DNA of 64,000 nucleotides. Origin: Thermoanaerobaculia bacterium. Its GTDB lineage: Bacteria > Acidobacteriota > Thermoanaerobaculia > Gp7-AA8. The translations under genes and the position numbers were made by a program. This document shows positions 6,782 to 63,849 of the stretch, piece after piece; positions within the stretch are counted from its first letter, which is position 1, and every line of letters begins with the position of its first letter. The notes under the pieces are model-generated. The model saw only the letters and a list, made by a program, of their open reading frames with translations. It made no database searches and was not told where the DNA came from. The stretch covers positions 4,477-68,476 of the forward strand of contig DASYJY010000089.1 of assembly GCA_035995985.1 (NCBI GenBank). The letters run 5' to 3'.

Positions 6782-7531
6782 ATGGCTGACGAAAACGAAA
6801 GCGGGGCATCGCTTCTTGCGCGGCGCGAATATGCGCGCGCGGTTCCGCTCCTCAAACGCGATCTCGACAAGTACCAGTCCAATCCTCGCATCCGGCTGCA
6901 GTACGCCGACGCGCTGGCCGGTGCCGGCCAGCACGAAGAGGCGATCGCGCAGTACGAGCACACGGCGAAGTACTACGAGGACAACGGATTAACCGTGCAA
7001 GCCATCGCCGTCGCGAAGAAGGCGGAGAAGCTGCGCGGGCAGATCGCCGCTGCCGCGCCGCAGGAGGCGACGGCGGGGAAGAGCGATCCGCTGTTCACGC
7101 GTCCCGTGCCGAAGTCGCCGCTCTTCGAGGTGTTGAATGAGGAAGAGCGCGATGCGCTGGTGCGCGAGATGGAGCTCGAATCACACGACGAGGGGAGCGT
7201 CATCATCAGCGAAGGGCAGCCCGGCGCGTCGATGTACGTCATCGCCAGCGGCGAGGTGAAGGTCTTCACGAACGGCGCCGGAGGCTCCACGCTTTATCTC
7301 GCGCGGCTCGGCGAGGGCGATTTCTTCGGCGAGGTGAGCATGCTCACCGGCAAGCCGCGCACGGCCACCATCACCGCATCGCAGCGCACCGAACTGCTTC
7401 GCCTCGATAAAGAAAAACTCGATAACGCCCTGGCGACGTATCCCGGAATCCGCAACGTGCTCAACGACTTTTATCAACGCCGCGCCGAGCACACGGTCGA
7501 GGCGATGATCGACAGTTTGAAGAGAAAGTAG
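6782..7531 (+). CDS. Cyclic-nucleotide-binding domain protein with a TPR-like N-terminal region
   Basis: 249-aa ORF whose C-terminal half has the cNMP-binding signature GEGDFFGEVSMLTGKPRTATITA. Confidence 0.8.
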   Translation: MADENESGASLLARREYARAVPLLKRDLDKYQSNPRIRLQYADALAGAGQHEEAIAQYEHTAKYYEDNGLTVQAIAVAKKAEKLRGQIAAAAPQEATAGKSDPLFTRPVPKSPLFEVLNEEERDALVREMELESHDEGSVIISEGQPGASMYVIASGEVKVFTNGAGGSTLYLARLGEGDFFGEVSMLTGKPRTATITASQRTELLRLDKEKLDNALATYPGIRNVLNDFYQRRAEHTVEAMIDSLKRK

Positions 7532-30332: not shown

Positions 30333-32301
30333 CCCCGCCATCCACGGGCAGCATCGCGCCGGTAGTTTTCGCCGATCGTGGGCCAGCCAGAAAGAGCGCG
30401 GCCTCGGCGACGTCATCCGCGGTGACCTCGGTCTTCAGCAACGTCCGATTGCGATAAAAGTCGGGGAGGTTCTCGGACGAGATGCCGTACGCCGTTGCGC
30501 GCATCGATCGCATCTCGTCGCTCCAGAATCGGGAGCCGCCGAAGATGGCGTCGGGGTTGAGCATGTTGGCGCGGATGCCGAACTCGCCGCCCTCCAGCGC
30601 CACGATGCGGCACAACTGCGCCTCGGCGGCTTTGCTCACGCTGTACGCGCCGAACTCCTTGCCGGGCGCGGTTACGTTCTTCGACGCGTTGAAGACGAGG
30701 CTGCCGCCGGTTTTCTGCTGTTTCATGATCCACAGCGCCGCGCGCGCGACGAGGAAATGTCCGCGCGCGTTGACGGCGAACGCGCGATCCCAATCGGCGG
30801 CGGGGAGGACGTCGAGGCTTCCGAACGAGGAGATGCCGGCATTGCTGACGATGATGTCGACGCCGCCGTAAACGGCGATCGTTTCCGCGTACGCGCGCTC
30901 GACGTCGTCTTCCCTGGAGACATCGAGCCGCAGCGCGATCGCGCGACGCAATCCATGCTTTGCCACGATGCCCTTCGCGACCTCCTCGGCCAGCGCGACA
31001 TCGACGTCGGTGACGACGACGTGCGCGCCCTCCTCGGCGAAGCGTTCCGCGCACGCGCGGCCGATGCCGCTCGCGGCGCCGGTGATGATCGCGACCTTTC
31101 CCGCCAGCTCTTTTTCCTTCGGCAGCAGCGTGAGTTTGTACAACTCCAGCGGCCAGTACTCTGCGTGAAACGCATCCTCATCGTTCAGCGTCTCGTAGCC
31201 GTCCGCGCCCTCGGCGGATTCGATGATGCGCATGGTGTGGCGGTAGATGTCGCGCACGATCCGCGCCGCGCGCGCGTCTTTGCCCGCCGTCCACATGCCC
31301 GCGCCGGGAACGAGGACGACGCGCGGATGCGCATCGAGCATCGCGAATTCGCTCGGATAGTTTTCGTAATGCGCTTTGTATCGTTCGACGTGATCGCCGA
31401 GCGCTTTCGAAACGTCGTCGCCCGCATCGAGAAAGAGTGGAAAGCGTTTCGTGTGCAGCAAGTGATCGGGCGTGGCCGGACCGATCTGCGTGATGCGCTT
31501 CGCGTCCTCGCGAGCGAGGAAGCGGAGCACGTCGTCGCTGCCGTCGAATTCGAGGATGACCGAACGCTTCGTGCCGAGGGCGCCGCGGATGACGGGAGCG
31601 AGCGTTGTTGTGTCGACGCTTGCCGAAGCCGAAACCGATGGACGCGATCGCAAGGCCAGCCACTCCTCCGCCTTCGTCACGAGCGCGATGTGCTTCTCGT
31701 ACGCCTCCCGCGCGTTCTCGCCCCAAGTGATCAGCCCATGATTCATGAGTACGAGTCCCTCGGCATCGGGCTTTGACGCGAATGCATCGGCGACATCGCG
31801 GCTCAATCGAAATCCCGGACGAAGATAGGGAACGGAGATCACCGAATCGCCGAAACATGCGCGCACCGTTGACTCACGGCCGCGTGTATTCGTTAGTCCG
31901 AGGATCGCATCCGCGTGTGTGTGCAGGACCGCGCGAGCGGGGAGGAACGCGTGCAGCAGCGTCTCGATCGACGGACGCCGGCTCGACGGATCGACGAGGC
32001 AGCGCGCCAGGTAGTCGACCATCTCCTGATCGCTCATCTCGCCTTCCCGTATCCGCAGCGGCTCGATGTAGTCGAGGCGCACCGCGGGAAACTCTTTCGG
32101 CACGATCGTCTTCATGTCGCTGCCGCTCGACTTGATGTACATCACCGGAATTGGTGTGCCGAGGAGGTCCGTGGATTGGGACTTGACGCTGTTGTTTCCG
32201 CCGCCCCACAGCACGAGCGATTCTTCGGCGCCGACGAGGCGCGACTGGTAGACGAGTTGGTCGATTTCGTTGTCGGGCGTCTCCGCCCAGCGGTTAATCA
32301 T
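30310..32301 (-). CDS. Bifunctional class II aldolase/adducin-domain protein fused to a short-chain dehydrogenase (rhamnulose-1-phosphate aldolase/alcohol dehydrogenase type)
   Basis: 663-aa ORF. The N-terminal half has aldolase-like His motifs (AVLHTHAD). The C-terminal half is an SDR with TGAASGIGRA, NAG and YSVSK. Confidence 0.85.
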   Translation of the reverse strand: MINRWAETPDNEIDQLVYQSRLVGAEESLVLWGGGNNSVKSQSTDLLGTPIPVMYIKSSGSDMKTIVPKEFPAVRLDYIEPLRIREGEMSDQEMVDYLARCLVDPSSRRPSIETLLHAFLPARAVLHTHADAILGLTNTRGRESTVRACFGDSVISVPYLRPGFRLSRDVADAFASKPDAEGLVLMNHGLITWGENAREAYEKHIALVTKAEEWLALRSRPSVSASASVDTTTLAPVIRGALGTKRSVILEFDGSDDVLRFLAREDAKRITQIGPATPDHLLHTKRFPLFLDAGDDVSKALGDHVERYKAHYENYPSEFAMLDAHPRVVLVPGAGMWTAGKDARAARIVRDIYRHTMRIIESAEGADGYETLNDEDAFHAEYWPLELYKLTLLPKEKELAGKVAIITGAASGIGRACAERFAEEGAHVVVTDVDVALAEEVAKGIVAKHGLRRAIALRLDVSREDDVERAYAETIAVYGGVDIIVSNAGISSFGSLDVLPAADWDRAFAVNARGHFLVARAALWIMKQQKTGGSLVFNASKNVTAPGKEFGAYSVSKAAEAQLCRIVALEGGEFGIRANMLNPDAIFGGSRFWSDEMRSMRATAYGISSENLPDFYRNRTLLKTEVTADDVAEAALFLAGPRSAKTTGAMLPVDGGVKEAFPR

Positions 32302-32339
32302 GCGGCGTATTATCGACAGACAACGAAAAGGGGGAAGTC

Positions 32340-32762
32340 ATGAATCGTCTGCTGTCCGTTGTTCTCATCGCAGTCGCGGCATCGCTCTTCCTGGCCGCGG
32401 CGCCTGTGACCTCCGTATCGGCGACGGCATCGATCGATCTGAGCATCGAGATTGCGCCGACGTCGTATGGCCCCTACGAGTTGTTGCGCGAACAACATCG
32501 CGGCACCTTCACCTGCTGCGCGATGTGGCTCGATGAGCCGAACCATCGCATCTACGGATCGGTGAGCGTCGTGGTCCATCCGGGCGAGGAGCAGACGGAG
32601 ACATCCATCGCCGGCGGCGTGAAGATGACGATGAAAGGGCGCGTCGACTCCGGCCGCACTGGCGCGACCGCCGAGGTCACCGTTGTACGCGACGGAGTTC
32701 TGATCGCGCATCAGCAGAGCCGCGTGAAGTTGACGGGATCCGGCCGTTCACAGGTGTACTGA
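32340..32762 (+). CDS. Hypothetical secreted protein
   Basis: 140-aa ORF with a signal peptide (LIAVAASLFLAAAP), preceded by a GGGGGAAG RBS-like sequence. No motifs recognised. Confidence 0.5.
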   Translation: MNRLLSVVLIAVAASLFLAAAPVTSVSATASIDLSIEIAPTSYGPYELLREQHRGTFTCCAMWLDEPNHRIYGSVSVVVHPGEEQTETSIAGGVKMTMKGRVDSGRTGATAEVTVVRDGVLIAHQQSRVKLTGSGRSQVY

Positions 32763-32816
32763 ACGCGCCGGCGCCCCGGTGCTACACTCAGCGCCTCATC
32801 AACAAGGAGGCATTGC

Positions 32817-33299
32817 ATGCGTCACGTTGCCGGGGCGTTGCTCGTGGTTTTTCTCGTCGCACTGCCGGCCTTCGCTATCGATCCTGGACACGCCGAGGGG
32901 AGCTTGACTATCGATGCGAACAAGATCCCGCTCAACTACGCGTACGCCGTGGCGAAGCAGAAGAATGAGCTCTCCGGCCGCAACGAGATGACGCGCATCA
33001 TCCTCACCGAAAAGCCGCTGCCCGACGGCGCGAAGCTGACGGAGATGGACAACAACCTTCCCGGCAATCTGAACGGCGTGATCATCTGCATCGACAAACT
33101 CGGACGCGTCGGCCACGTCGCCGTCCAGCACCCGAAGGGAACGTACGACGGCGGCTACTTCGAGGGCGTTCCCGATTACGAGTTCAAGCAGCGCAAGGGC
33201 GAGTCGGGAACGTACGGCGGCACCGTTTCGTCGATGAGCATCAAGACGAACACGATGACGTTCTCCTACGATGCGACATTCGTCGCCTCGCTCCGGTAA
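32817..33299 (+). CDS. Hypothetical secreted protein
   Basis: 160-aa ORF with a signal peptide (LLVVFLVALPAFA) and an AAGGAGG RBS 6 nt upstream. No motifs recognised. Confidence 0.6.
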   Translation: MRHVAGALLVVFLVALPAFAIDPGHAEGSLTIDANKIPLNYAYAVAKQKNELSGRNEMTRIILTEKPLPDGAKLTEMDNNLPGNLNGVIICIDKLGRVGHVAVQHPKGTYDGGYFEGVPDYEFKQRKGESGTYGGTVSSMSIKTNTMTFSYDATFVASLR

Positions 33300-33320
33300 A
33301 CCGTTACACTTTCGCGGTTC

Positions 33321-35825
33321 ATGGCGCTCTTCTCCAACGAAGTCAGCGATGCGGTGAAGCGTCTGGCGGCGAAGTCGTACGCGACGCAGGAAGAGCGCGA
33401 CGAGTTGCTCGGCCGCGTCGAATCGGCAGACGGCGTGCGGGCGCGCGACGTCATCTGGATGTTGTTCCGGCCGGACCGTGCGCTCCGCGACAGTGCCGCG
33501 CGCGTGCTGCTGCGCGTTCGCGACGCCGAAACGCTCGACGTTTTTCTTGCCGAATCGAAAGGGAAACCGGAACAGGCTCTGCGCGCCGCGGCCGCGGCTC
33601 TCTTTGCGCTCGGGCTGCCGGCGATTGACGCGCGTCTAGTCCAACTTCTTGCGCCGCCGCCGAAGGAGACGAAGGAAACGCGCGAGCTGCAGGATGCCGT
33701 GCGGCGTCTGCTGGCCGAGGCGCCGATGTCGCGGCAATTGGAGCCGGTGCTGTGGCAGCTTGCGTCTTCCGGCAATCCCGACGAGCGCCTGCCGTTTCTC
33801 AACAAGCTCGCATCGAGTGAGATCGACGAGAACGCAGCGCGCCGCTGGCGGCGGATCGCTGCCGATCCCAGCCCGGCCGTGCGCGACAAAGCGATCGAAG
33901 TTCTGGCTGCGAAAGCGCCGCAGCATTCGCTCGATCTGCTGATCGAAGCGCTGCCACGCGCCGGTTATGCTGTGCAGCAAACGATCGTCGAGGCGATGAC
34001 GAAGCTGGCCGCCGGACAAGGCGCCGCATTCGCCGACCGTCTTCTTCCCGCGCTGGCGTCCGGCGACGCCGCCACGCGCACCGCCGTTCTGAAAATACTC
34101 CTCGGCATCGGCGATCCGGCCGGCGTCATCAAACGCTACATCCGTTTCTCCAGCACGCTGGCCGGCTTCATCCGCGACCGCGCGCTCGATTCGCTGCGCG
34201 AGTTTGGCGCCGCGCTCATCGAGCCGGTCATCGAACTGCTGCACGATGCCGATCCTGACACGCGCTCCGGCGCGATGGCCGTCGCCGGCGGATTCGAAGA
34301 TGTGCGCATCGTCCCCGCGACGGTTCAACTGCTGCGCGATCCCGACTGGTGGATTCGGATTTCCGCCGCCGACATGCTCGGACGCCTCAAGGATCCGCGC
34401 GCCGTCGAGCCACTCGTGGCGACGCTGGCCGATCCCGACATGAAGTGGGCCGCCGTCGAAGCGCTCGGCCGGATCGGCGATCCGCGCGCATTGCCTGCGC
34501 TGGGAAAGATGCTCGCCGACCCGCTGCCCGACGTTCGCATCGAAGTCATGCTGGCGTTGAAGAACTTCCAGCATCCGCAGGTTCGCAATGCGCTGACGAG
34601 CGTCGCGCAAAACGATCCCGATCGCGGCGTCCGGACGCACGCGATCGAAATTCTCGATGAGCTTGCCGCGACCGATCGCCAGTCGCAGTCGGGCATCGAC
34701 GCGATTCGCAAAGCGGCGCTGACGGTCGCCGTCGCACAGGGCGAGCCGCGGCTCAATACGCTGCTGATCGCTACGCGCAATCAGGGCGGATCAGACTTTC
34801 ACCTCTCCGTCGGCCAGCCGCCGATCGTCCGCCTCTCCGCCGATCTGCTGCGCGCGCAGGGCGAGCCGTTTACCGCGGCGCAGACGGAGTCGATGCTGAA
34901 GGAAGTGCTCAGCGACGCGCAGTGGGCCACGCTGCAGACGCAGACGCAGATCGACTTCTGCTACGTCGTCCCGCAAGGCGGCCGCTATCGCGCGAACGTT
35001 TTCTTCGATCATCACGGCTACAACGGCGTCTTCCGCGTCATCCCGGAGAAGCCGCCAACGATCGTCGACCTCGGGCTGCCCGCGCATCTCGCGGAGATCT
35101 CCGACTATCACCAGGGACTCGTGCTCGTCTGCGGTCCGTCCGGTTCGGGCAAGTCGACGACGCTCGCGGCGCTCGTGAATCTGTTCAACGAGACGCGCAA
35201 CGATCACATCCTGACGATGGAGGACCCGGTCGAGTTCGTCCATCCGTTCAAGAATTGCCTCATCAATCAGCGCGAAGTCGGGTCGCACACGAATTCATTC
35301 GCGCGCGCACTGCGGGCGGCGTTGCGCGAAGACCCCGACGTGATCGTGATCGGCGAGCTGCGCGACAACGAATCGATCACGCTCGCCCTCACCGCCGCCG
35401 AGACCGGCCACATAGTCCTCGGCACGCTGAACTCCACCAGCGCACCGAAAGCAATCGATCGCATCCTCTCCAGTTTCCCCGCCGACGAGCAGCCGCAGAT
35501 TCGCGCGTCGCTCTCCGAGTCGCTGCGGTATTGCATCGCGCAGCGCCTGCTGCCGGCGCGGGAAGGACGCCGCCAGGTTGCCGCCTTCGAAGTACTCAAA
35601 GGCACGAGCAACATCGGCACGATGATTCGCGACCAGAAGACCTACCAGATTTACTCGGCGATGCAGATCGGACGTTCCCTCGGCATGCAGACGTTCGACG
35701 AGGCGCTCAAGGACTTGCTGCGCCGCGAACAGATCAGCGCGGAGACGGCGTACCTCGCAGCGCTGAAAAAAGAAGATTTCGAATCGATGGTCAGCCCCGA
35801 GTTCATCGCCCGAGGAAAAGCGTAA
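33321..35825 (+). CDS. HEAT-repeat domain fused to a PilT-like type IV pilus retraction ATPase
   Basis: 834-aa ORF. About 470 aa of HEAT/PBS-lyase-type repeats (DPDWWIRISAADMLGRLKDPRAVEPLV, DPDMKWAAVEALGRIGDPRALPAL, DPLPDVRIEVMLAL) are followed by a PilT core with Walker A GPSGSGKST, Asp box MEDPVEFVH and Walker B DVIVIGELRD. The His box reads GTLNS instead of GTLHT. Confidence 0.85.
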   Translation: MALFSNEVSDAVKRLAAKSYATQEERDELLGRVESADGVRARDVIWMLFRPDRALRDSAARVLLRVRDAETLDVFLAESKGKPEQALRAAAAALFALGLPAIDARLVQLLAPPPKETKETRELQDAVRRLLAEAPMSRQLEPVLWQLASSGNPDERLPFLNKLASSEIDENAARRWRRIAADPSPAVRDKAIEVLAAKAPQHSLDLLIEALPRAGYAVQQTIVEAMTKLAAGQGAAFADRLLPALASGDAATRTAVLKILLGIGDPAGVIKRYIRFSSTLAGFIRDRALDSLREFGAALIEPVIELLHDADPDTRSGAMAVAGGFEDVRIVPATVQLLRDPDWWIRISAADMLGRLKDPRAVEPLVATLADPDMKWAAVEALGRIGDPRALPALGKMLADPLPDVRIEVMLALKNFQHPQVRNALTSVAQNDPDRGVRTHAIEILDELAATDRQSQSGIDAIRKAALTVAVAQGEPRLNTLLIATRNQGGSDFHLSVGQPPIVRLSADLLRAQGEPFTAAQTESMLKEVLSDAQWATLQTQTQIDFCYVVPQGGRYRANVFFDHHGYNGVFRVIPEKPPTIVDLGLPAHLAEISDYHQGLVLVCGPSGSGKSTTLAALVNLFNETRNDHILTMEDPVEFVHPFKNCLINQREVGSHTNSFARALRAALREDPDVIVIGELRDNESITLALTAAETGHIVLGTLNSTSAPKAIDRILSSFPADEQPQIRASLSESLRYCIAQRLLPAREGRRQVAAFEVLKGTSNIGTMIRDQKTYQIYSAMQIGRSLGMQTFDEALKDLLRREQISAETAYLAALKKEDFESMVSPEFIARGKA

Positions 35826-36889
35826 TGGCGATGCAGAAGATCGATCGCTTCCTCAAGCTGATGAACGATCGCGGCGCGTCCGATTTTCATCTCACCGTCG
35901 GCCGTCCGCCGATGCTGCGTGCGTCGGGGACGATGGAGTCGATCCGCTATCGCACGCTGACCGAGGGCGATTTCGCGGAGATGATCAAGCCGGTCACGCC
36001 GGCCAGGTTGTGGGACGAATACCAGCAGACCGGCGACGTCGATTTCTCGTACGAGATTCCGGACGTGGCCCGCTACCGCGTCAATCTCTTTCGCCAGCAG
36101 CGCGGTGGCGGCGCGGTCTTCCGCGTCATCCCTACGAAGATCATGACGCTCGAACAGCTCGGCCTTCCCGATCCGGTGCGCCGCATCGCCTCGATTCGCA
36201 GCGGTCTGGTGCTCGTGACCGGCCCGACCGGTTCCGGCAAGTCGACGACACTCGCGGCCATCATCGATCTGATCAACGAGACGCGCGGACTGCACATCAT
36301 CACAATTGAGGACCCAATCGAATTCGTGCATCCGAACAAGAAATGCCTCGTACACCAGCGCGAGATCGGCACGCATGCGAAATCGTTCGCCGAGGCGCTG
36401 AAGGCCGCCGGCCGCGAAGATCCGGACGTGATCCTGGTCGGCGAAATGCGCGATCTGGAAACGATCGCCATGGCCCTTTCCGCCGCGGAGCGCGGCACGC
36501 TCGTCTTCGGCACGCTCCACACGAACAACGCTGCGAAGACGATGGACCGCATCATCAGCGTCTTCCCGGCCTCGGAACAGGAAGGCGTCCGCAACGTGCT
36601 CGGCGAAACAATTCGCGGCGTCGTCGCCCAGCAACTGATGCCGAAAGTCGGCGGTGGCCGCATCGCCGCTGTGGAGATCCTCTTCGCCTCGCCCGCTATC
36701 GGCAACATGATCCGCGAGGGTAAGACTTCGCAGGTGACCAGCGCGATCCAGACCGGCGTGAAGGAAGGGATGATCGACATGGACGGCTCCATCCGCCGCC
36801 TCTACGACGCCGGCCTCGTCACCGCCCGCGCCGCCTACGACAAGGCGATCGACAAGGAGCAGTTCAAGGACTTGCTGGAGACGGCTTGA
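35825..36889 (+). CDS. pilT: Type IV pilus twitching-motility ATPase PilT (canonical)
   Basis: 354 aa from an ATG overlapping the upstream stop (TAATG). Walker A GPTGSGKST, IEDPIEFVH, DVILVGEMRD, His box GTLHTNNA and the C-terminal motif AIGNMIREGK. Confidence 0.92.
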   Translation: MAMQKIDRFLKLMNDRGASDFHLTVGRPPMLRASGTMESIRYRTLTEGDFAEMIKPVTPARLWDEYQQTGDVDFSYEIPDVARYRVNLFRQQRGGGAVFRVIPTKIMTLEQLGLPDPVRRIASIRSGLVLVTGPTGSGKSTTLAAIIDLINETRGLHIITIEDPIEFVHPNKKCLVHQREIGTHAKSFAEALKAAGREDPDVILVGEMRDLETIAMALSAAERGTLVFGTLHTNNAAKTMDRIISVFPASEQEGVRNVLGETIRGVVAQQLMPKVGGGRIAAVEILFASPAIGNMIREGKTSQVTSAIQTGVKEGMIDMDGSIRRLYDAGLVTARAAYDKAIDKEQFKDLLETA

Positions 36890-36999
36890 CTCAACCTAAG
36901 GACGCCCTCGAAATCGAGTCAGCGAAGCTCGATCGTGAAGAGGAGCAGGCCATGGCTGATGAAAGCTGTGTCGCCGAAATCGACCTTTCGGAATCCGAT

Positions 37000-37041
37000 G
37001 CGTTTTATACGTAGAGTTCGCGAACTCTGCGTATAAAACGC
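37000..37041. repeat. 42-bp AT-rich near-perfect palindrome abutting the stop of the cNMP/DUF1003 gene
   Basis: GCGTTTTATACGTAGAGTTCG (37000-37020) and CGAACTCTGCGTATAAAACGC (37021-37041) are reverse complements with one mismatch and no loop. It lies between convergent genes. Confidence 0.7.
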
Positions 37042-37883
37042 TAACCCTTCCTGAGCAGCCCTTCCATCATCGCGAACCGCTCCAGCATTTCCGTGTAGAT
37101 GCGGTCGGTCTTTTCGTGGAGATGCGCGACTTCGAGCTCCGCTTTGATGTTGACCTCGTATTCGACGTCGGAGCGGACGTGATCTTTTTCGGCCTGGCGG
37201 TTCTGGCTGATCAGAACGAAGCAGGAGAGGAAGATTGCTTCCAGCGAGACGATCATCGTCAACAGGCCGAACGGATATGGATCGAACGCGGGGATGCCGA
37301 GGCGGAAGGTGTTGACGATGATCCAGGCGCCGAACCAAATGAGGTTGATGAGCAGGAACGGCATGCTGCCGCTGAACCAGGCGATCCAGTCGGCGATTTT
37401 CTGGAGCGCGCTGAGGTTTTCCTCGACCTCGATGTTGACGTTGCGGGAGACGCGCGTTTGGAGGAGCTCGTCCGCTTTTCGCGTCATGTGTCCGACTGCT
37501 GCCAGCAGCCGCACAGCCGCCTCGGGTGTTTTCCGGAAGAGGAGCAGCAGGTCGTCGCGATCGAGCTCAAGCAATTCGGTGTCTACGAGCGCAAGCGCGG
37601 TGGCAGTGCGGGCGCCGCGGTCGAGGAGTGCCAGCTCGCCGAAGATCTCGCCGTCGCGCGCGACCGTGAGCACGATCTTCTGTCCGGCCGTGTCTTTGAT
37701 GAACAACTCGACCTCGCCCGCAGTGACGACGAACAGCGATTCGCCCGGCTCGCCGGCTTGAAAGAGCGTCGTTCCCGCCTTCAGCTCGCGCCGATCGACG
37801 ACAAGCGCTAACTGCGTGCGATCCTCTTCGGTAAGCTGCTCAAAAAGCTCGTTCTTCGCGAGCATCCCTGCATCACACGGCAT
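37041..37883 (-). CDS. Cyclic-nucleotide-binding domain fused to a DUF1003 membrane domain
   Basis: 280-aa ORF. The N-terminal cNMP-binding domain has IFGELALLDRGARTATA. The C-terminal part has two TM helices plus the coiled tail characteristic of DUF1003 (FDPYPFGLLTMIVSLEAIFLSCFVLISQNRQ). Confidence 0.78.
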   Translation of the reverse strand: MPCDAGMLAKNELFEQLTEEDRTQLALVVDRRELKAGTTLFQAGEPGESLFVVTAGEVELFIKDTAGQKIVLTVARDGEIFGELALLDRGARTATALALVDTELLELDRDDLLLLFRKTPEAAVRLLAAVGHMTRKADELLQTRVSRNVNIEVEENLSALQKIADWIAWFSGSMPFLLINLIWFGAWIIVNTFRLGIPAFDPYPFGLLTMIVSLEAIFLSCFVLISQNRQAEKDHVRSDVEYEVNIKAELEVAHLHEKTDRIYTEMLERFAMMEGLLRKG

Positions 37884-56340: not shown

Positions 56341-57129
56341 ATGCTCGCGTTCGAGGCAGAAGTCGCACAGATTTATGACGACATCAGCGCGAATTATGGC
56401 GAAACGATCGACCAATTCCAAAGTCTGCCCGCCGCCAATCAGTATCGAAAGCTCTATGAATTAGCGGAAACCTACGTCGCGCCCGGCTCGGCCGTGCTCG
56501 ACTGGGGTTGCGGACGCGGTCATTTCTCGTACTACCTGCTCAAACGAGGTTACCGGGTTACGGCGTACTCCCTGGAAGACCCTCCGCACGTCTTCACGAC
56601 GTTGACTGCAGAAGAACGCAGCCGGCTCACAGTCATCCGCGGCGACGCTCCGGTTCTTCTACCCTTTCCTGCGAATTCGTTTGACGCGGCTTTCAGCGTC
56701 GGTGTTCTTGAGCATGTTCGAGAAGTCGGCGGCACAGAGTCGGAGAGTTTGAAGGAGCTGCGAAGGGTATTGTCGTCCGCGGGAACAGTGATCGCGTATC
56801 ACATCCCGAACCGGCTCAGTTACATTGAGGCTCTGGCGCGCATTACGTATGGCCGCCGGTATCGCCATGTGACGGAGAGCGTCAAATTTCACAAATACCG
56901 TTTCGGCGCCTCCGACCTCACCGCTCTTGTGGAAGGCGCCGGGTTTCGAATGGCCGAATTCGGGCGCTACGGTTTTCTGCCTCGCAATTCATTCAATCGA
57001 CTGCCGGCCGCTCTGCGTTCCCGCCGGCGGCTGACTTCGGCCGTCAATATTGCCGATCATTTTCTGGAGCGTCTCTTCGCACCTGTAGTTCAGAACTTCT
57101 ATTTCGTTGCTCGGGCGAAGGAAGCGTGA
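56341..57129 (+). CDS. Class I SAM-dependent methyltransferase
   Basis: 262-aa ORF with motif I VLDWGCGRGH and post-I/II motifs (FDAAFSVGVLEHV). Confidence 0.85.
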   Translation: MLAFEAEVAQIYDDISANYGETIDQFQSLPAANQYRKLYELAETYVAPGSAVLDWGCGRGHFSYYLLKRGYRVTAYSLEDPPHVFTTLTAEERSRLTVIRGDAPVLLPFPANSFDAAFSVGVLEHVREVGGTESESLKELRRVLSSAGTVIAYHIPNRLSYIEALARITYGRRYRHVTESVKFHKYRFGASDLTALVEGAGFRMAEFGRYGFLPRNSFNRLPAALRSRRRLTSAVNIADHFLERLFAPVVQNFYFVARAKEA

Positions 57130-58898
57130 TGGATTTTACCCAACCACCTTCTTCGCTGACGCCGTATCAGCGCCTTTTATTTTGGCTTCTCGCATTGTTT
57201 TGTGCGGGAACGCGGTTTCTTGCGATGGCGCGAACTCTCTGGGATTGGGATGAGGCGCTTTTGTGCCTCGGGATGCGTTCTTATGACGTAACCCTTCACC
57301 ATCCCCATCCGCCTGGCTTCCCCGTCTACATCGCTCTCGGCAGAATTGTGCAGACCGTCATTCCGAATGAGTTTCGCGCTCTTCAGGCGGTCAATCTCGC
57401 TGCGGGGATGCTCGTCTTTCCGGCGATCTTTTTGCTAGCGCGCGAATTACGGCTCCCGTTCGTCACTGCGACGATCGCCGGTGCGCTCTGCGCCTTTTTT
57501 CCGAATGTCTGGTTCTTCGGCGGTGGTGCGTTCAGCGACGTTCCATCCCTCGTGCTGGTCGTTTTCGCAGTGGCGTTTCTCTTCCGCGGATGCCGCGATG
57601 CGAACGCGTATCTGATCGGGGCGGCGCTGCTGGCGCTTGCGGCCGGAATTCGTCCGCAGAACTTTCTGGTAGGGCTCGCGCCCGGCCTGCTGGCGACCAC
57701 GTATCGCGCTCGCGCCGCTTGGCGGGACGTCGTCTTTGCCGCGCTGGTCGGCACGACCATTGTCGTGGTCGCGTTCGGAGGCGCGATCGCGGCGACCGGC
57801 GGACCAAAGCCGTACTTCGCCTCGGCCAAAGAGCACGGCCAGTACATCACCCGCGTCGACTCCTTCCGCAGCCCTTCCCGCCCGCCGTTGTGGCGCCTCT
57901 TCGATCGTTTCTTCATCAAGCAATACCAGTCGATCGCCCTCGGCTTCATCACCTCGATCCCGGTTTTCGTTTCCATCGGCGGCGCCATCGCCTCGCGTGA
58001 CCGCGCCATCGGGTGGCTCGCGCTCAGCTTCGGGCCGTTTGCGGTTTTCGCCTGGATGATGCTCGACCGCTACAGCATCAACCGCTTCTCCCTCGGATAC
58101 TGCCCGCTGTTCGCGATCCTGGCCGCCGACGGCATCCGCCGGCTCACGCGCGCCTGGCCGCGAGTCGAGGCATTCGCCGGCGCAACCCTCATCGCATCGT
58201 TCTTCGTCTGGACGCTGCCCGCTCTGGCCGTGGTCCGCAACACCAAGCCTCCCTCGGTGCTCGCCGTCGAAGCCGTGGCGCAGCACCTCGATCGCCGCAC
58301 CGACGAGCTGTTCGTCGCGGGCGACATCGACCCCTTCCTCCTGTATCTCTTGCCGCGCTATCCGTACGTGCACGTGCTCGACAAGCGCGCCATGCCGCTG
58401 TCGATCGGCAGCCGCAGGCCGTGGGTGCTCGCCGAGGCCGGGGCGAAGGATCGAGGAGCCTTGGTGTTTCATCGCGAGCGCGGACACCTCTGGAACATCG
58501 CCCGGCGCCATTACTTTGACGCGGAGGTCATCCCGGTGCCGACTCCTCCGCAATTTCTCGCCGGCTGGTATCCGGCTGTGCGCGAGACGCCGTTCGAAAT
58601 GCGAGCGATGACCGGTCACTCCGTGACGCGGCTCCCTCAGTCGCGCGGCGAGACGATCCTGCGGATTCAATTTCGCGTGCCCGACGCGTTGGTCGCGGCG
58701 CACGCCACGATTACCATCGCGCTGAACGGCCGCGTCATCGATCGTTTCGCAGCCGTTGATGAGGATGATCGCGACTACCAAGTCACGCCCGCCGCGAACG
58801 CGAAGGCCAATGTGCTGGAAATGTCGATCGATCGAACGATTCACGAACCGCGCGAGTTGGGGATGACGATTCGCGGCCTGTCGTTTGGACCGGGTTGA
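57126..58898 (+). CDS. GT-C fold polytopic membrane glycosyltransferase-like protein (PMT/ArnT/DUF2723-like)
   Basis: 590-aa ORF whose start overlaps the methyltransferase stop (GTGATG). More than 10 TM helices. The first loop carries the acidic WDWDE motif followed by HHPHPPGFPVY, which resembles the HPPG(Y/F)P motif I recall in DUF2723/TMEM260-type mannosyltransferases. Soluble C-terminal domain. Confidence 0.6.
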   Translation: MMDFTQPPSSLTPYQRLLFWLLALFCAGTRFLAMARTLWDWDEALLCLGMRSYDVTLHHPHPPGFPVYIALGRIVQTVIPNEFRALQAVNLAAGMLVFPAIFLLARELRLPFVTATIAGALCAFFPNVWFFGGGAFSDVPSLVLVVFAVAFLFRGCRDANAYLIGAALLALAAGIRPQNFLVGLAPGLLATTYRARAAWRDVVFAALVGTTIVVVAFGGAIAATGGPKPYFASAKEHGQYITRVDSFRSPSRPPLWRLFDRFFIKQYQSIALGFITSIPVFVSIGGAIASRDRAIGWLALSFGPFAVFAWMMLDRYSINRFSLGYCPLFAILAADGIRRLTRAWPRVEAFAGATLIASFFVWTLPALAVVRNTKPPSVLAVEAVAQHLDRRTDELFVAGDIDPFLLYLLPRYPYVHVLDKRAMPLSIGSRRPWVLAEAGAKDRGALVFHRERGHLWNIARRHYFDAEVIPVPTPPQFLAGWYPAVRETPFEMRAMTGHSVTRLPQSRGETILRIQFRVPDALVAAHATITIALNGRVIDRFAAVDEDDRDYQVTPAANAKANVLEMSIDRTIHEPRELGMTIRGLSFGPG

Positions 58899-60343: not shown

Positions 60344-61306
60344 TCAGTGGACCGAGGCCGGCTTCTTCTTGGGAGCCTTGCGCGCGACCACGGTTTTCTT
60401 CTTCTTCGCCACAGGCGGGTACTGCTTCGCGGCGACGGCGTTGACGTAGCGCACGAACTTCGCGAAGAGCTGCTCGCTGCGGTCGACGGGAGCGGCGGCG
60501 CGGGAGAGCTCATCCACGTAGCTGCCGGAACTGAGTTGCAGCTGCGAATCGCGCGTCAGCATGGCCGTCATCATGTCGGAGACCGCGAACTCCGTCGGAG
60601 GGGTGATGCCGAGGGATTTGGCGGAATCGGTGATGGCCCGGCGGGCGGAAGGGGAGAGCTCGGCAATCTTGCCGGCCAGCGTCGTCTCGATGTGGCTCGA
60701 CTCCGGCGTGATGATCATGACCGCGCTGCGCGAGGCCACGAAATCCGGCGACGCGTTGACGATCCCTTTCGTCGCCGGGAGAAAAAGCTTGTCGCCATTG
60801 TTCGGATCGAGCTGGTTGTAAATCGCAGGACGCAGCAGCCGTCCCGAATTGCAGGCGCTGATGATCACGTAGTAAATCCCTTCCGGTTCCAGCCGCTGCT
60901 GCAGCGCGCCTGCGGAAATGTAGGAGCGGCTCGCGTCGGGGTCGTAACTCGTCTGCAGCTTCAGGCCATTGCCGTTCGTGCCATGCGTTTCGAGGATCAG
61001 CGTGAAGATGCGCCGCTCCGGATACAGCACGTTGTGGCGGTGAACGTCGTCGAGGACCTTCTCCCAGTCGGCATCCTGAAAACAGGCGAAGCCGAGCGAC
61101 TCGTAGAAACGGCAGTTGCCGGCAACGGAGAGGTCGGGACTGAAGACGACGCCGACGCCGCGTCCGATCTCACTCACGCGGCGCGACGCGACGTCGGGCC
61201 AGGCGCGATCGAGAAGCGCGAGACTGCTGTTGCCGGCCGCGGCGGAAAGGGGGGCCGCGAAAAGAAAAACGAGTGTGGCGAGGAAGGGGACGTGGCGTGA
61301 GGTCAT
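60344..61306 (-). CDS. Secreted hypothetical protein with a caspase/CHAT-like His...Cys strand pattern and a Lys-rich tail
   Basis: 320-aa ORF with a signal peptide (ATLVFLFAAPLSAAA). RIFTLILETHG and IYYVIISACNSG are hydrophobic strands ending in HG and in C-x-S-G. The C-terminus is KKKKTVVARKAPKKKPASVH. Confidence 0.6.
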   Translation of the reverse strand: MTSRHVPFLATLVFLFAAPLSAAAGNSSLALLDRAWPDVASRRVSEIGRGVGVVFSPDLSVAGNCRFYESLGFACFQDADWEKVLDDVHRHNVLYPERRIFTLILETHGTNGNGLKLQTSYDPDASRSYISAGALQQRLEPEGIYYVIISACNSGRLLRPAIYNQLDPNNGDKLFLPATKGIVNASPDFVASRSAVMIITPESSHIETTLAGKIAELSPSARRAITDSAKSLGITPPTEFAVSDMMTAMLTRDSQLQLSSGSYVDELSRAAAPVDRSEQLFAKFVRYVNAVAAKQYPPVAKKKKTVVARKAPKKKPASVH

Positions 61307-61350
61307 GAGGATGGCGGAGCGCTCCGGTCGAAACGCTCCGCCGGAAACGC

Positions 61351-62361
61351 TTACTCCTTGTGCATCGCGCGATGGCGATGATGACGTCCGCTGCCGGTGC
61401 TGGTGCCGCTGTCGCTGGTCGTTGATCCGGACGAACTGGACATCGACCCGCTTGTCGATCCGGTCGTATCCGTGCCGCTCATGCCGCTCATCGAGCCGGA
61501 GGTTCCGGTGCCGCTCGTCGAGCCGCTCGTGTTGCCGGTTCCGCTGCTGTTGAAGTTCGAGCTGCCCGTGGACCCGCTGCCGGTGCCGGTCGACCGAGTT
61601 CCGGTCCGACTCGTCGTCGTGCCGCTAGTCGTGCCGGAGCCGCTGGTCTGGCCGTTGGTCATCGAGCCGCTGGTGTTGTTCGTGTTTCCTGTCGTGCCGC
61701 TGGTCTGACCATACGAGCTGCTGCTGCTCATGCCGTTGTTGGTGCCGTTGTTCGTGATGCCGCTGGTGGTGCCGATGTTCGCCGACGTGTCAGTCGTCGC
61801 GGCTGAATTGATGTCGGTCGCCGTCGTGCTGTTGCCAGCCGTCGTGCCGTAGTTCGTGGTCGGGTTCGTCGTGTTGTTCGCGGTCGTGCCGCTGCTCTGC
61901 ACGCCCGTGTTCATCGCACCGTTGTTGTTGCTCGTGCTCGAGGTCGTGCCAGTGCCGGAGAAGTTGTTTCCGTACGATCTGCTGTTGCCCGAGCTCGTGC
62001 CGGTCGTGCCGCTGTTGTTCGTCCCGTACGTTGCGGTCGTTCCGGTCGTAGCGGCCGTGCCGCCGTAGTTGGTCGAGCCGCTGGTGGTTCCGGAGGAGTT
62101 CATGTCGCCCATCGAACCGGAGCTCGAGCTCGACATGCTCGAGCCGTTGCCAGACGTGCTGCCGTTGTTGCTGGTGCCGCTGGTGGTCCCGCTCGTCGTG
62201 CCACCGCTCGTGCCGCTGCTGATTCCGCTTGACATCGTGCTGCTGGTGCCGTTGTCCGTGCCCGTGCCGTTGGTGCTGCCGGTCGTACTGCAACCGAATA
62301 ACGCCAGGCTCAGAGTGAGTACGGCGATGAGAGTGAGAACTGCGCTATGCGTTCGTTTCAT
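61351..62361 (-). CDS. Extremely Ser/Thr/Gly/Asn-rich lipoprotein
   Basis: Start taken at MKRTHSAV (62361), preceded by a CAGGAGG RBS. Lipobox LFGC. About 300 aa consist almost only of S, T, G and N, with scattered M/Y/A. The C-terminus is GSGRHHRHRAMHKE. Confidence 0.6.
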   Translation of the reverse strand: MKRTHSAVLTLIAVLTLSLALFGCSTTGSTNGTGTDNGTSSTMSSGISSGTSGGTTSGTTSGTSNNGSTSGNGSSMSSSSSGSMGDMNSSGTTSGSTNYGGTAATTGTTATYGTNNSGTTGTSSGNSRSYGNNFSGTGTTSSTSNNNGAMNTGVQSSGTTANNTTNPTTNYGTTAGNSTTATDINSAATTDTSANIGTTSGITNNGTNNGMSSSSSYGQTSGTTGNTNNTSGSMTNGQTSGSGTTSGTTTSRTGTRSTGTGSGSTGSSNFNSSGTGNTSGSTSGTGTSGSMSGMSGTDTTGSTSGSMSSSSGSTTSDSGTSTGSGRHHRHRAMHKE

Positions 62362-62469
62362 CGTTTTGGTCCTCCTGAGATTTCTCCTCTGTTTTTCGCG
62401 GAGCGGTTCCGCTTCGCTCGGGGTGACGTACTTCAAAACTCAGACCCATTTTTGCGCGCGATGAAAACC

Positions 62470-62763
62470 TCAATGCGTGCCGGTCGAGCCTGTCGTTGCC
62501 GAGGTTGACGTCGTTCCGGTTGGCGTCGTGCCGGTGGTGGATGTCCCGTTCGTCGACGTTCCGCCGCTGCCATCAGCGTTGCCGCTGGACGTCGTGGCGC
62601 TGTTCGTGACCGGAGCGCCTGCGCCGGTTTCCGTCGCGGTGGTGCCGGTCGGTGCCGGCTGGAGCGTGTCGGTCGAGCCGGTCGTGGTTTCCGCCGGCTT
62701 GCGGTTGCAAGCGGTGCAAAGAAGAAGAATGGCGATGACGCTGATGACTCCTCGGGTGCGCAT
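62470..62763 (-). CDS. Small Thr/Ser/Gly-rich lipoprotein
   Basis: 97-aa ORF with lipobox CTAC. The mature part is dominated by T, S, G and A and ends in TGSTGTH. Confidence 0.5.
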   Translation of the reverse strand: MRTRGVISVIAILLLCTACNRKPAETTTGSTDTLQPAPTGTTATETGAGAPVTNSATTSSGNADGSGGTSTNGTSTTGTTPTGTTSTSATTGSTGTH

Positions 62764-62846
62764 AGATGATCCTCCGCGCGCGTGCCGAGCAATCGTCGCG
62801 CCTGGTTGGCGCGCGACGTGAACGCCGTCTCCGGCGGAGGTGCAGT

Positions 62847-63266
62847 ATGGCTGAGGTTATCGGACGCTTTTCCGCCCACACATTCGCGCTCTTGCGCATC
62901 GTCGCAGGTCTTATGTTCGCGATGCATGGAACGCAAAAACTTCTTGGATGGCCTGCAATGCCGCCGGGAATGAGCGGTCCGTTGCCGCCACTGATGAAAG
63001 TGGCAGGCGGCATTGAACTGGTGTGCGGTCTGCTGATCGCCATCGGCCTCTTCACCGGCATCACCGCGTTCATCGCCAGCGGTGAGATGGCGGTCGCGTA
63101 CTTTATGGGTCATGCGTCGCACGGCGGCTTCTGGCCGCTCGAAAACAAAGGCGAGCTGGCGGTGCTCTATTGCTTCGGATTTCTCTTCATTGCCGCGCAC
63201 GGAGCGGGGATCTGGAGCATCGACAACGCCATGCGGCGGCGGACTCCGGTGGTCACGACCGCGTGA
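62847..63266 (+). CDS. DoxX-family membrane protein
   Basis: In-frame ATG at 62847 (139 aa). Four TM helices with FALLRIVAGLMFAMHGTQKL typical of DoxX. Confidence 0.85.
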   Translation: MAEVIGRFSAHTFALLRIVAGLMFAMHGTQKLLGWPAMPPGMSGPLPPLMKVAGGIELVCGLLIAIGLFTGITAFIASGEMAVAYFMGHASHGGFWPLENKGELAVLYCFGFLFIAAHGAGIWSIDNAMRRRTPVVTTA

Positions 63267-63849
63267 GTTGTCGCAGCGCGGCCTTGAGCAGCGCGGAGAG
63301 TTCGGCCTCGTTGCCGAGCTCTTTGCGCGCGATGTCGAGCGCTGACTCGGCGTCCTTCGGGCGGTAGCCGAGGTTGATGAGCGCGGAGTGGACATCGTCG
63401 TCGACCGAGGTGCGCGTCGACGGCGCCGGCTGCTCCCGCGCCGACTCCGGAATGAGCAGCTTGTCGCGCAATTCGAGGACGATGCGGTCCGCCGTCTTTT
63501 TCCCGACGCCCGGGATCGACGACAACTTCTTCACGTCTCCGCGCGCCACGGCCTGGGCGAGATCGGGCGCATCGATTCCCGAAAGGATCTTCTGCGCCAG
63601 CGTCGGCCCGATCCCGGAGATCGAGATCAACTTCTCGAACGCGAATTTCTCCTCGCCCGAGGCGAAGCCGTAAAGCGAGAGCGCATCCTCGCGTACGTGC
63701 GTGTAAATCGTGAGCGCGACGTCGCGCTGCCCTTCGAGCTTGTAGTACGTCTGCAGCGAGATGTGTACCTCGTAACCCACGCCGCCCGCGATGACGAGCG
63801 CGCGCGTGGCGTCGAGTTGTTTGAGGGCGCCTTCGAGGTAGCCGATCAT
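63253..63849 (-). CDS. ruvA: Holliday junction branch-migration complex subunit RuvA
   Basis: 198-aa ORF with an N-terminal OB fold (MIGYLEGAL...GGVGYEV), helix-hairpin-helix motifs (ISGIGPTLAQKIL, IPGVGKKTADRIVLEL) and C-terminal domain III. Confidence 0.93.
   Translation of the reverse strand: MIGYLEGALKQLDATRALVIAGGVGYEVHISLQTYYKLEGQRDVALTIYTHVREDALSLYGFASGEEKFAFEKLISISGIGPTLAQKILSGIDAPDLAQAVARGDVKKLSSIPGVGKKTADRIVLELRDKLLIPESAREQPAPSTRTSVDDDVHSALINLGYRPKDAESALDIARKELGNEAELSALLKAALRQLTRS

Follow-up and report, generated by a model that had tools for sequence, protein, structure and literature searches.

A 64,000-nucleotide stretch of contig DASYJY010000089.1 (assembly GCA_035995985.1, Thermoanaerobaculia; hereafter the window) encodes two adjacent PilT-family ATPases, the products of genes A and B, the first of which is fused to a long N-terminal alpha-solenoid of HEAT-type repeats. 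Such fusions are followed by a short PilT gene across Acidobacteriota and Myxococcota-type genomes, and the long and short proteins co-diversify. The two proteins of the window are altered at different positions of the same His box, and erosion of catalytic residues beyond this box is confined to the long proteins. We lean, with restrained confidence, towards reading the two proteins as an obligate pair of PilT paralogues in which the short one would be the competent motor and the HEAT-bearing long one a nucleotide-binding, attenuated or partner-dependent subunit with a docking or regulatory role.

The N-terminal half of the gene A product matches the Pfam families HEAT_2 at 123.2 bits (cutoff 27.7; three stretches), HEAT at 46.7 bits and HEAT_PBS at 40.6 bits. 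Its C-terminal half matches T2SSE at 134 bits and, end to end over amino acids (aa) 478-818, the NCBIfam model TIGR01420 of PilT/PilU family type IVa pilus ATPases at 407.7 bits (curated cutoff 319.1 bits; core of about 340 aa). Sequence profiles see HEAT/PBS-lyase-type repeats only between about aa 170 and 450, and an AlphaFold2 model run on a 42-sequence alignment extends them to an uninterrupted array of 28 helices over aa 6-467, with a predicted local distance difference test (pLDDT) score mostly of 84-92. Foldseek related the solenoid to alphaRep designs, the PP2A A subunit and CAND1, finding in the PDB no specific relative past generic HEAT/ARM proteins, and related the C-terminal part to PilT, PilU and DotB. 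The first-pass annotation of this DNA, which described about 470 aa of HEAT-type repeats joined to a full PilT core, thus holds as a statement about fold. Its readings of an intact Walker A, Asp box and Walker B with Glu, and of a His box spelled GTLNS with the Asn codon AAC at 35430-35432, were also borne out (Table 1). Among the homologues, the N-terminus MALF... is kept and the interdomain region is conserved, and the conserved alignment columns of the solenoid contain an invariant, family-specific DPDWWxR motif (34338-34361). HEAT proteins of the PBS-lyase type (HEAT_2, PF13646; HEAT_PBS, PF03130; NblB, CpcE; alphaRep) share the repeat signature and the solenoid fold with gene A; the latter differs by the lack of a lyase context, by the fusion of its repeats to an ATPase and by the invariant DPDWWxR.

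The fusion is genuine and widespread, well outside anything chance would yield, as an architecture search called for by the first-pass annotation made clear. A word-indexed search returned at least 949 homologues, of which the best 120 are all full-length (824-863 aa, 99-100% query cover, 67-97% identity). Those with a name among these 120 are called only "twitching motility protein PilT" or "PilT/PilU family type 4a pilus ATPase", a generic annotation that masks the distinction between long and short forms, and come from metagenome-assembled genomes (MAGs) of Thermoanaerobaculia or Acidobacteriota. Hundreds of independently assembled homologues of 818-862 aa, from JGI, ENA, NCBI and Logan assemblies with contigs of up to 3.6 Mb, have the same continuous architecture. 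An exhaustive search of 50%-identity cluster representatives added dozens of clusters with the full-length architecture down to 31-45% identity, some of them labelled Myxococcota or Polyangiales. Scanning genomes (one per species) with a 4-sequence alignment of the N-terminal HEAT part detected 80 loci. One group gathers Thermoanaerobaculia, Vicinamibacteria, Candidatus Sulfomarinibacteraceae and other Acidobacteriota; the other, more distant (N-terminal part 28-33% identical), comprises Myxococcota and MAGs with various proteobacterial labels. Nearly the whole window is contained in one soil metagenome run, and the unitigs of a source-like run were fragmented and uninformative on the HEAT/PilT junction.

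A short PilT-family gene lies directly after the long gene, on the same strand, in 53 loci. Of 56 loci, 38 have overlapping stop and start codons (-1 or -4), 9 have a spacing of 0-30 nt and 8 one of 31-300 nt, and at one locus, L001, where the orthologue of gene B is 85% identical, a SnoaL-like gene is inserted between the long and short genes. In the window, the stop codon of gene A and the start codon of gene B share one A, confirming the TAATG overlap noted earlier (35823-35827), with GAGGA eight bases before the ATG and a further in-frame ATG at 35831. Scanning positions 32200-37200 gave no promoter-like site, and terminator-like sites only at the level of shuffled sequence. Soil metatranscriptome contigs about 90-93% identical run along both genes, and the one that spans the A/B junction comes from a relative in which A>G at 35825 turns TAATG into TAGTG; since this reads as a TAG stop and a GTG start, the overlap is preserved in that relative. 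The reverse search, started from two partner homologues, found the HEAT fusion immediately upstream of both with a 4-nt overlap. In a neighbour-joining tree of the ATPase cores, indicative only as it carries no support values, all long cores group together, as do all short proteins, in two clades whose branching orders match. When about 4000 flanking open reading frames (ORFs) from about 80 loci were clustered by all-against-all BLAST, no conserved third family emerged, only the pair itself and antisense shadow ORFs. The coupling to a downstream PilT pointed out in the first pass is consequently that of a conserved, co-diversifying two-gene module (adjacency, overlap, congruent trees), which makes a functional partnership of the long and short subunits very likely.

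Gene B scores even higher on TIGR01420, at 438.5 bits, and keeps every catalytic residue checked, putative Arg-finger arginines included, bar the first histidine of the His box (hereafter His-1, the second being His-2). Compared with the canonical box ETGHLVFGTLHT, that of gene B, ERGTLVFGTLHT, changes T-G-H to R-G-T: His-1, equivalent by alignment to H222 of the Pseudomonas aeruginosa PilT (PaPilT), is a Thr (codon ACG, 36497-36499), and the Thr two residues earlier is an Arg. In gene A, it is the equivalent of PaPilT H229, His-2, that is changed, so that the TGH...TLH histidine pair of the PilT/PilU family is broken in both proteins at different positions. Gene B had been described in the first pass as a textbook PilT; it does contain GTLHTNNA and AIGNMIREGK as stated, and yet its His-1 is replaced by Thr and it belongs to a distinct clade devoid of His-1.

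To read the motif columns, all ATPase domains were aligned to gene B, and the His box was tallied in the 53 loci holding both genes (Thermoanaerobaculia, Vicinamibacteria, other Acidobacteriota and Myxococcota-type MAGs). Every one of the 53 long subunits has His-1, and their His-2 position is N (37), S (10) or H (6). The short subunit has His-2 in 53 of 53 and never a histidine at the His-1 position, which is occupied by T (44), L (5) or, once each, I, F, V and S. His-1 is likewise absent from all of the best 120 homologues of one Myxococcota-type partner (L 63, V 52, M 3, T 2). Of 72 other PilT-like cluster representatives, a sample biased towards relatives of the query, 70 have His-1, as do the solved PaPilT and Geobacter PilT-4 sequences. 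At the His-2 position, the 120 close homologues of gene A mostly have N, about ten have S, one has T and none has H, and the long family as a whole is variable (N, S, T, Q, P, H). Myxococcota-type long proteins (L063, L067-L073) keep His-2, and L083, from a MAG of the same type, has Asn. The Asn singled out in the first pass is therefore a clade trait, not a defining one: it depends on lineage, and the trait by which the module can be recognised everywhere is a short subunit without His-1.

Both genes have a Walker A motif of the form GxxxxGK[ST], an Asp box and an atypical Walker B with its catalytic Glu. Of 120 close homologues of gene A, 118 have an identical Walker A, and the Asp box and the Walker B Glu are strongly conserved among them too; gene A of the window keeps the putative Arg-finger arginines of the N-domain (an assignment that is our own reading). 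Erosion of catalytic residues beyond the His box is seen in the long subunit exclusively: the Walker B Glu is an Asp in five of them (L039, L048, L049, L052, L060) and Walker A is unusual in distant clusters. The C-terminal AIRNLIRE motif remains close in gene B (AIGNMIRE) and is diverged in gene A. The altered form of gene A, NIGTMIRDQK, is present as first reported, but it is confined to the close clade; the long family most often reads NIANMIRDEK, which retains I-x-N-x-I-R-[DE]. The first-pass suggestion of a regulatory pseudo-ATPase fares in the same mixed way. Erosion restricted to the long subunit fits an attenuated or regulatory role, yet the conservation of Walker A, Asp box and Walker B in the close family makes "pseudo-ATPase" too strong a term for gene A.

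Table 1. Features of the two-gene module in the window
Feature	Position	Strand	Basis
Gene A, long subunit: HEAT-solenoid::PilT-family ATPase fusion, 834 aa	33321..35825 (incl. stop)	+	ORF, Pfam, NCBIfam, homologues
Gene A N-terminal alpha-solenoid, aa 1-472	33321..34736	+	Pfam, AlphaFold2, Foldseek
Gene A PilT-family ATPase core, aa 473-834	34737..35822	+	TIGR01420, PaPilT 3jvu match
Gene A putative Arg-finger arginines: RxR in GRYRANVF, FR in GVFRVIP	34980-35045	+	motif reading
Gene A Walker A GPSGSGKST	35133-35159	+	motif reading
Gene A Asp box MEDPVEF	35217-35237	+	motif reading
Gene A Walker B with Glu DPDVIVIGELRD	35331-35366	+	motif reading
Gene A His box ETGHIVLGTLNSTSA, ETGH...TLN: His-1 kept, His-2 = Asn	35400..35444	+	alignment
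Gene A AIRNLIRE equivalent NIGTMIRDQK	35610..35639	+	alignment
Coupling junction: Shine-Dalgarno-like GAGGA 35812-35816, TAA 35823-35825, ATG 35825-35827	35812..35827	+	sequence
Gene B, short subunit: PilT-family ATPase, 354 aa, clade without His-1	35825..36889	+	TIGR01420, motifs
Gene B Walker A GPTGSGKST	36221-36247	+	motif reading
Gene B Asp box IEDPIEF	36305-36325	+	motif reading
Gene B Walker B DPDVILVGEMRD	36419-36454	+	motif reading
Gene B His box ERGTLVFGTLHTNNA, ERGT...TLH: His-1 = Thr, His-2 kept	36488..36532	+	alignment
Gene B AIRNLIRE-type motif AIGNMIREGK	36695-36724	+	motif reading

Among characterized ATPases, both gene products are closest to PilT itself (PaPilT, 3jvu; Geobacter PilT4, 5zfq and 6ojx). 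They match its full core, about 340 aa long, at E values between 1e-96 and 1e-110 (against PaPilT, gene A E=3.5e-96 and 326 bits, gene B E=1.6e-110 and 373 bits). Walker A, the Asp box, the Glu of Walker B and the putative Arg-finger arginines are shared; at the AIRNLIRE position, gene B is a close match and gene A is diverged. PilT proper has about 350 aa, both His-box histidines and no domain beyond its core. Gene B agrees with it in its single-domain length and differs at His-1 and the preceding Thr, whereas gene A, at 834 aa, exceeds that length by a 470-aa solenoid and has Asn at His-2. A PilU identity was rejected for either protein, given the lower scores against P. aeruginosa PilU (9n32; 217 bits for gene A, 227 bits for gene B) and a tree in which neither clade joins a PilU-like branch. 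The PilT/PilU pair of Vibrio cholerae, P. aeruginosa and Myxococcus xanthus nevertheless offers a parallel, as it too consists of adjacent paralogues, one primary and one accessory, that probably cooperate. It differs from the module by the presence of both histidines and the lack of an N-terminal domain in PilU, and by its gene order, since the module runs long then short, the reverse of pilT-pilU, with reciprocal His-box changes. Extension ATPases regulated through their N-termini are also known, namely MshE and PilB with the cyclic di-GMP-binding MshEN domain and the FimX-PilZ-PilB and SgmX-PilB adaptor systems. There, as may be the case here, a pilus motor is controlled or localised via an N-terminal module or a repeat-protein adaptor, but these are extension ATPases with different domains, unlike the retraction-type gene A. 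Our literature search retrieved no HEAT-PilT fusion, His-1-less PilT clade or retraction-type ATPase with a fused repeat platform; a search on type IV pili of Thermoanaerobaculia gave nothing useful and one on HEAT-PilT gave eukaryotic PIN-domain papers.

The module is not alone in its kind. The sister groups of the long clade in the neighbour-joining tree are other N-extended PilTs, and each of the four that we inspected (L085-L088) directly precedes a short PilT without His-1, which reads EMG[AT]L... or ACGL.... One is a 730-aa fusion of a WD40 beta-propeller to PilT with Met at His-2, followed after 10 nt by a 394-aa PilT without His-1, ACGLLVFGTLHT (L086:460-3846). The other three are Acidobacteriota pairs (L085:6001-8846; L087:6621-9068; L088:6519-9098) with long forms of 455-569 aa and a short form reading EMG[AT]LVFGTLHT. 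The long form of L085 has 569 aa and a proline-rich linker, and those of L087 and L088 have 455 and 490 aa. By eye, and not by any profile, the N-terminus of the L085 long form, LLLGRLAVHFKLLSKEQVSEAL, resembles an MshEN-type cyclic di-GMP-binding motif. Since other N-extended PilTs are also paired with His-1-less PilTs, the HEAT fusion is one variety of a wider class, which we propose to define as an N-extended PilT keeping TGH and, directly after it on the same strand, a second PilT, about 350-400 aa long and without His-1. This arrangement is found in the window, at the 53 HEAT-type loci and in the L085-L088 pairs. The best 120 homologues of one such short protein all lack His-1 and several of them come from Thermoanaerobaculia, so that this bacterial class appears to carry a second long/short pair.

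Adjacent PilT paralogues of M. xanthus, MXAN_6705 and MXAN_6706, have been reported to be "highly conserved across Myxococcales", MXAN_6705 having a longer disordered N-terminus and deletion of MXAN_6706 causing a partial S-motility defect (PMC13584747). Compared by description, they resemble the proline-rich pairs of L085, L087 and L088, the extension being disordered instead of HEAT-type, and may belong to the long/short class; we regard this as a lead only. A homology search intended to tie the partner clade to cultured Myxococcus returned MAG proteins for all of its best 120 matches.

What the His box does in related motors bears directly on the module. The pair of histidines was reported to be required for function in the PilT/PilU family (PMC6762196). 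In the PilB of Geobacter, the side chain of T411 is held between the two histidines, while the T411 backbone touches the adjacent packing unit when the interface is closed and nucleotide-bound. The gamma-phosphate is coordinated by the second histidine, and the authors concluded that the His box mediates cooperativity between chains (PMC5424180). The H229A mutant of PaPilT loses twitching, still supports phage infection and twitches weakly in the presence of PilU (PMC6858323; PMC12607626), and is thus impaired and not dead.

According to the paired-paralogue reading that we prefer, the two genes would constitute a self-contained, translationally coupled module. Gene B, with its catalytic residues and the gamma-phosphate-sensing His-2 retained, would most likely be the catalytically competent motor. 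Gene A, having lost this sensing histidine, most likely binds ATP with a slow or partner-dependent turnover, and its solenoid would be what docks the pair onto a machine of the type IV pilus kind or onto another partner, or regulates it there. As the same His-box relay is changed at different positions in both proteins, they are predicted to belong to a single assembly, whether one ring containing both or two rings stacked in the manner suggested for PilT and PilU. We infer in this way a physical interaction, a division of labour and a connection to pilus retraction.

Several points weigh against this reading. The residues of the His box act on the nucleotide of their own subunit, so simple complementation in trans does not account for the reciprocal losses. 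The interaction between the two proteins and the composition of any ring are pure inference, and evidence from V. cholerae argued against PilT/PilU hetero-hexamers (PMC6762196). The conserved catalytic motifs of gene A would also be compatible with a fully active ATPase, and as the Asn of the long subunit is lineage-dependent, attenuated catalysis may hold in some lineages only. The AlphaFold2 model of gene A is poor in the ATPase C-terminal domain (pLDDT below 50; predicted template modelling score 0.49), likely because only close homologues were supplied, and consequently permits no conclusion on the relative arrangement of its domains. One long gene, that of L018, has no partner within 8.7 kb, the metatranscriptome contigs that follow both genes may include DNA carry-over, and linkage to pilus genes was seen at only 2 of about 80 loci.

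A tandem motor of the PilT/PilU type, made of two homohexamers, is a possible though less than even alternative. Gene B would then bind the platform protein and retract, while a ring of gene A stacked beneath it would add force or processivity, its HEAT domain anchoring outward. Adjacent pilT/pilU-type pairs are a known precedent for such an arrangement. PilU depends on PilT and was proposed to form an independent hexamer beneath it, hetero-hexamers having been argued against in V. cholerae (PMC6762196), and AlphaFold-based ring-ring models were reported for M. xanthus and V. cholerae (PMC13584747). The divergence of the AIRNLIRE-type motif in gene A and its retention in gene B would fit these roles, but most long proteins retain I-x-N-x-I-R-[DE]. 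Furthermore, neither protein is a PilU by score, the gene order is opposite to pilT-pilU, and the invariable loss of His-1 in the short subunit is left unexplained.

A bolder conjecture, which we regard as unlikely, extends to the whole class. Long/short pairs would be obligate heteromeric motors (e.g., an alternating A3B3 ring) in which the His-box relay is split between the two subunit types to yield catalytic and regulatory interfaces, and an interchangeable N-terminal platform (HEAT, WD40 or disordered) would link the motor to different inputs. If true, this would represent a previously unrecognised class of retraction motors, widespread in Acidobacteriota and Myxococcota. Few known molecular motors are as strong as those of the PilT type, and the module provides a natural experiment on how work is divided among paralogous retraction ATPases (PilT, PilU and extra PilT copies), with co-inherited paralogues, reciprocal changes in a relay motif, one-sided erosion and a swappable docking platform. 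Should both proteins assemble together, they would illustrate a route from a homo-hexameric rotary ATPase to a heteromeric, regulated one, and would reveal how pili serving adhesion, motility or DNA uptake are controlled in abundant uncultured soil Acidobacteriota. While the architecture was already present in databases under its generic name, the reciprocal motif pattern, the strict pairing across phyla and the exchangeable platform make a testable case for heteromeric or tandem motors.

It is improbable, in our view, that the long protein is a dead pseudo-ATPase scaffold which binds ATP, never hydrolyses it and only positions or inhibits gene B. The role of His-2 in gamma-phosphate coordination and the twitching defect of H229A in P. 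aeruginosa would agree with this, as would the variability of the His-2 position, suggestive of a lost constraint, and the Asp that replaces the Walker B Glu at five loci. A dead enzyme would however not be expected to retain a near-identical Walker A along with its Asp box, Walker B Glu and putative Arg-finger arginines, H229A is partly functional in vivo, and an Asn could still hydrogen-bond the phosphate.

We give similarly little credence to a module unrelated to type IV pili, one that would drive or regulate another machine with a specificity conferred by the HEAT domain. A Pfam scan of 50 larger ORFs across the 64 kb of the window, chosen from a codon-position G+C ORF screen, gave no match to PilB, PilC, PilMNOPQ or a secretin; several ORFs of about 100-200 aa and all those below 100 aa lay outside the scan, so small pilin genes may have been missed. 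Together with the absence of a conserved neighbour at about 80 loci, this would suit a different machine, and given the second long/short pair of Thermoanaerobaculia, one pair may have been recruited elsewhere. Yet pilT and pilU are normally unlinked from pilus assembly genes, and the lack of such genes near the module, noted in the first pass and holding for these 50 ORFs, is not unusual and carries little weight. Both proteins score well above the PilT/PilU cutoff and are closest to bona fide retraction ATPases, and pilus genes do adjoin the module at two loci. Directly upstream of the HEAT-PilT gene of L025 lies a divergent cluster (L025:1756-9890) encoding a PilC-like T2SSF protein, a PilB-like T2SSE protein with MshEN, four small ORFs with no Pfam match and a secretin with TPR. 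At L015, the contig end leaves only a divergent gene for a PilC-like T2SSF protein in view, directly upstream of the long gene (L015:542-1750). These neighbours are positive, if weak, evidence for a type IV filament connection. With regard to anti-phage defence, PADLOC returned generic HEAT and P-loop matches only.

An origin of the fusion in misassembly or in a frameshift that merged separate HEAT and PilT genes has next to no probability, as the hundreds of independent full-length homologues from JGI, ENA, NCBI and Logan and their conserved interdomain region attest, and the only hint of it is the hybrid ORF of L026, a possible assembly collapse.

This ORF of 882 aa (L026:10004-12652) resembles the long subunit as far as the His box and the partner from there on (ETGHVVLGTLKTNNA ... 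AIGNMIREGK), which could reflect either a deletion between the paralogues or a collapse in assembly. Other variants of the module were noted. The partner at L041, in a long-read MAG, has frameshifts, and the short partners of L063, L070 and L084 (Polyangiales, Myxococcota) bear a proline-rich, probably disordered N-extension of 100-250 aa for a total of 550-630 aa. Additional PilT-family genes also occur near the module. About 1.5 kb upstream of it and on the same strand, L068 (6270-8507) and L069 (6283-8505) encode a protein of about 740 aa in which two complete PilT cores, each with its His box intact, stand in tandem; a 480-aa ORF separates this gene from the module. In some Thermoanaerobaculia, a third gene of the PilT family (387-405 aa) lies 3-5 kb upstream of the module; it contains ETGHLILSTLHTSDA, and its AIRNLIRE equivalent has diverged to PVRNHIR (L013:5368-6585; L014:5496-6659; L024:2178-3395).

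Elsewhere in the window, a 590-aa ORF (57126-58898, + strand) and three consecutive ORFs of 320, 361 and 320 aa (60344-63395, - strand) have no Pfam family at E<=1e-5. Two cyclic-nucleotide-binding proteins are encoded, one with cNMP_binding and DUF1003 domains, convergent with gene B (37041-37883, - strand), and one with TPR and cNMP_binding domains (6782-7531, + strand); neither is conserved beside the module at other loci. Upstream of gene A, two small ORFs on the + strand (32340-32762, 140 aa; 32817-33299, 160 aa) have hydrophobic N-termini and no Pfam or PADLOC match, and are conserved only in close relatives. The 160-aa ORF ends 21 nt before gene A, and a metatranscriptome contig covering 33000-33348 links it to the start of that gene.

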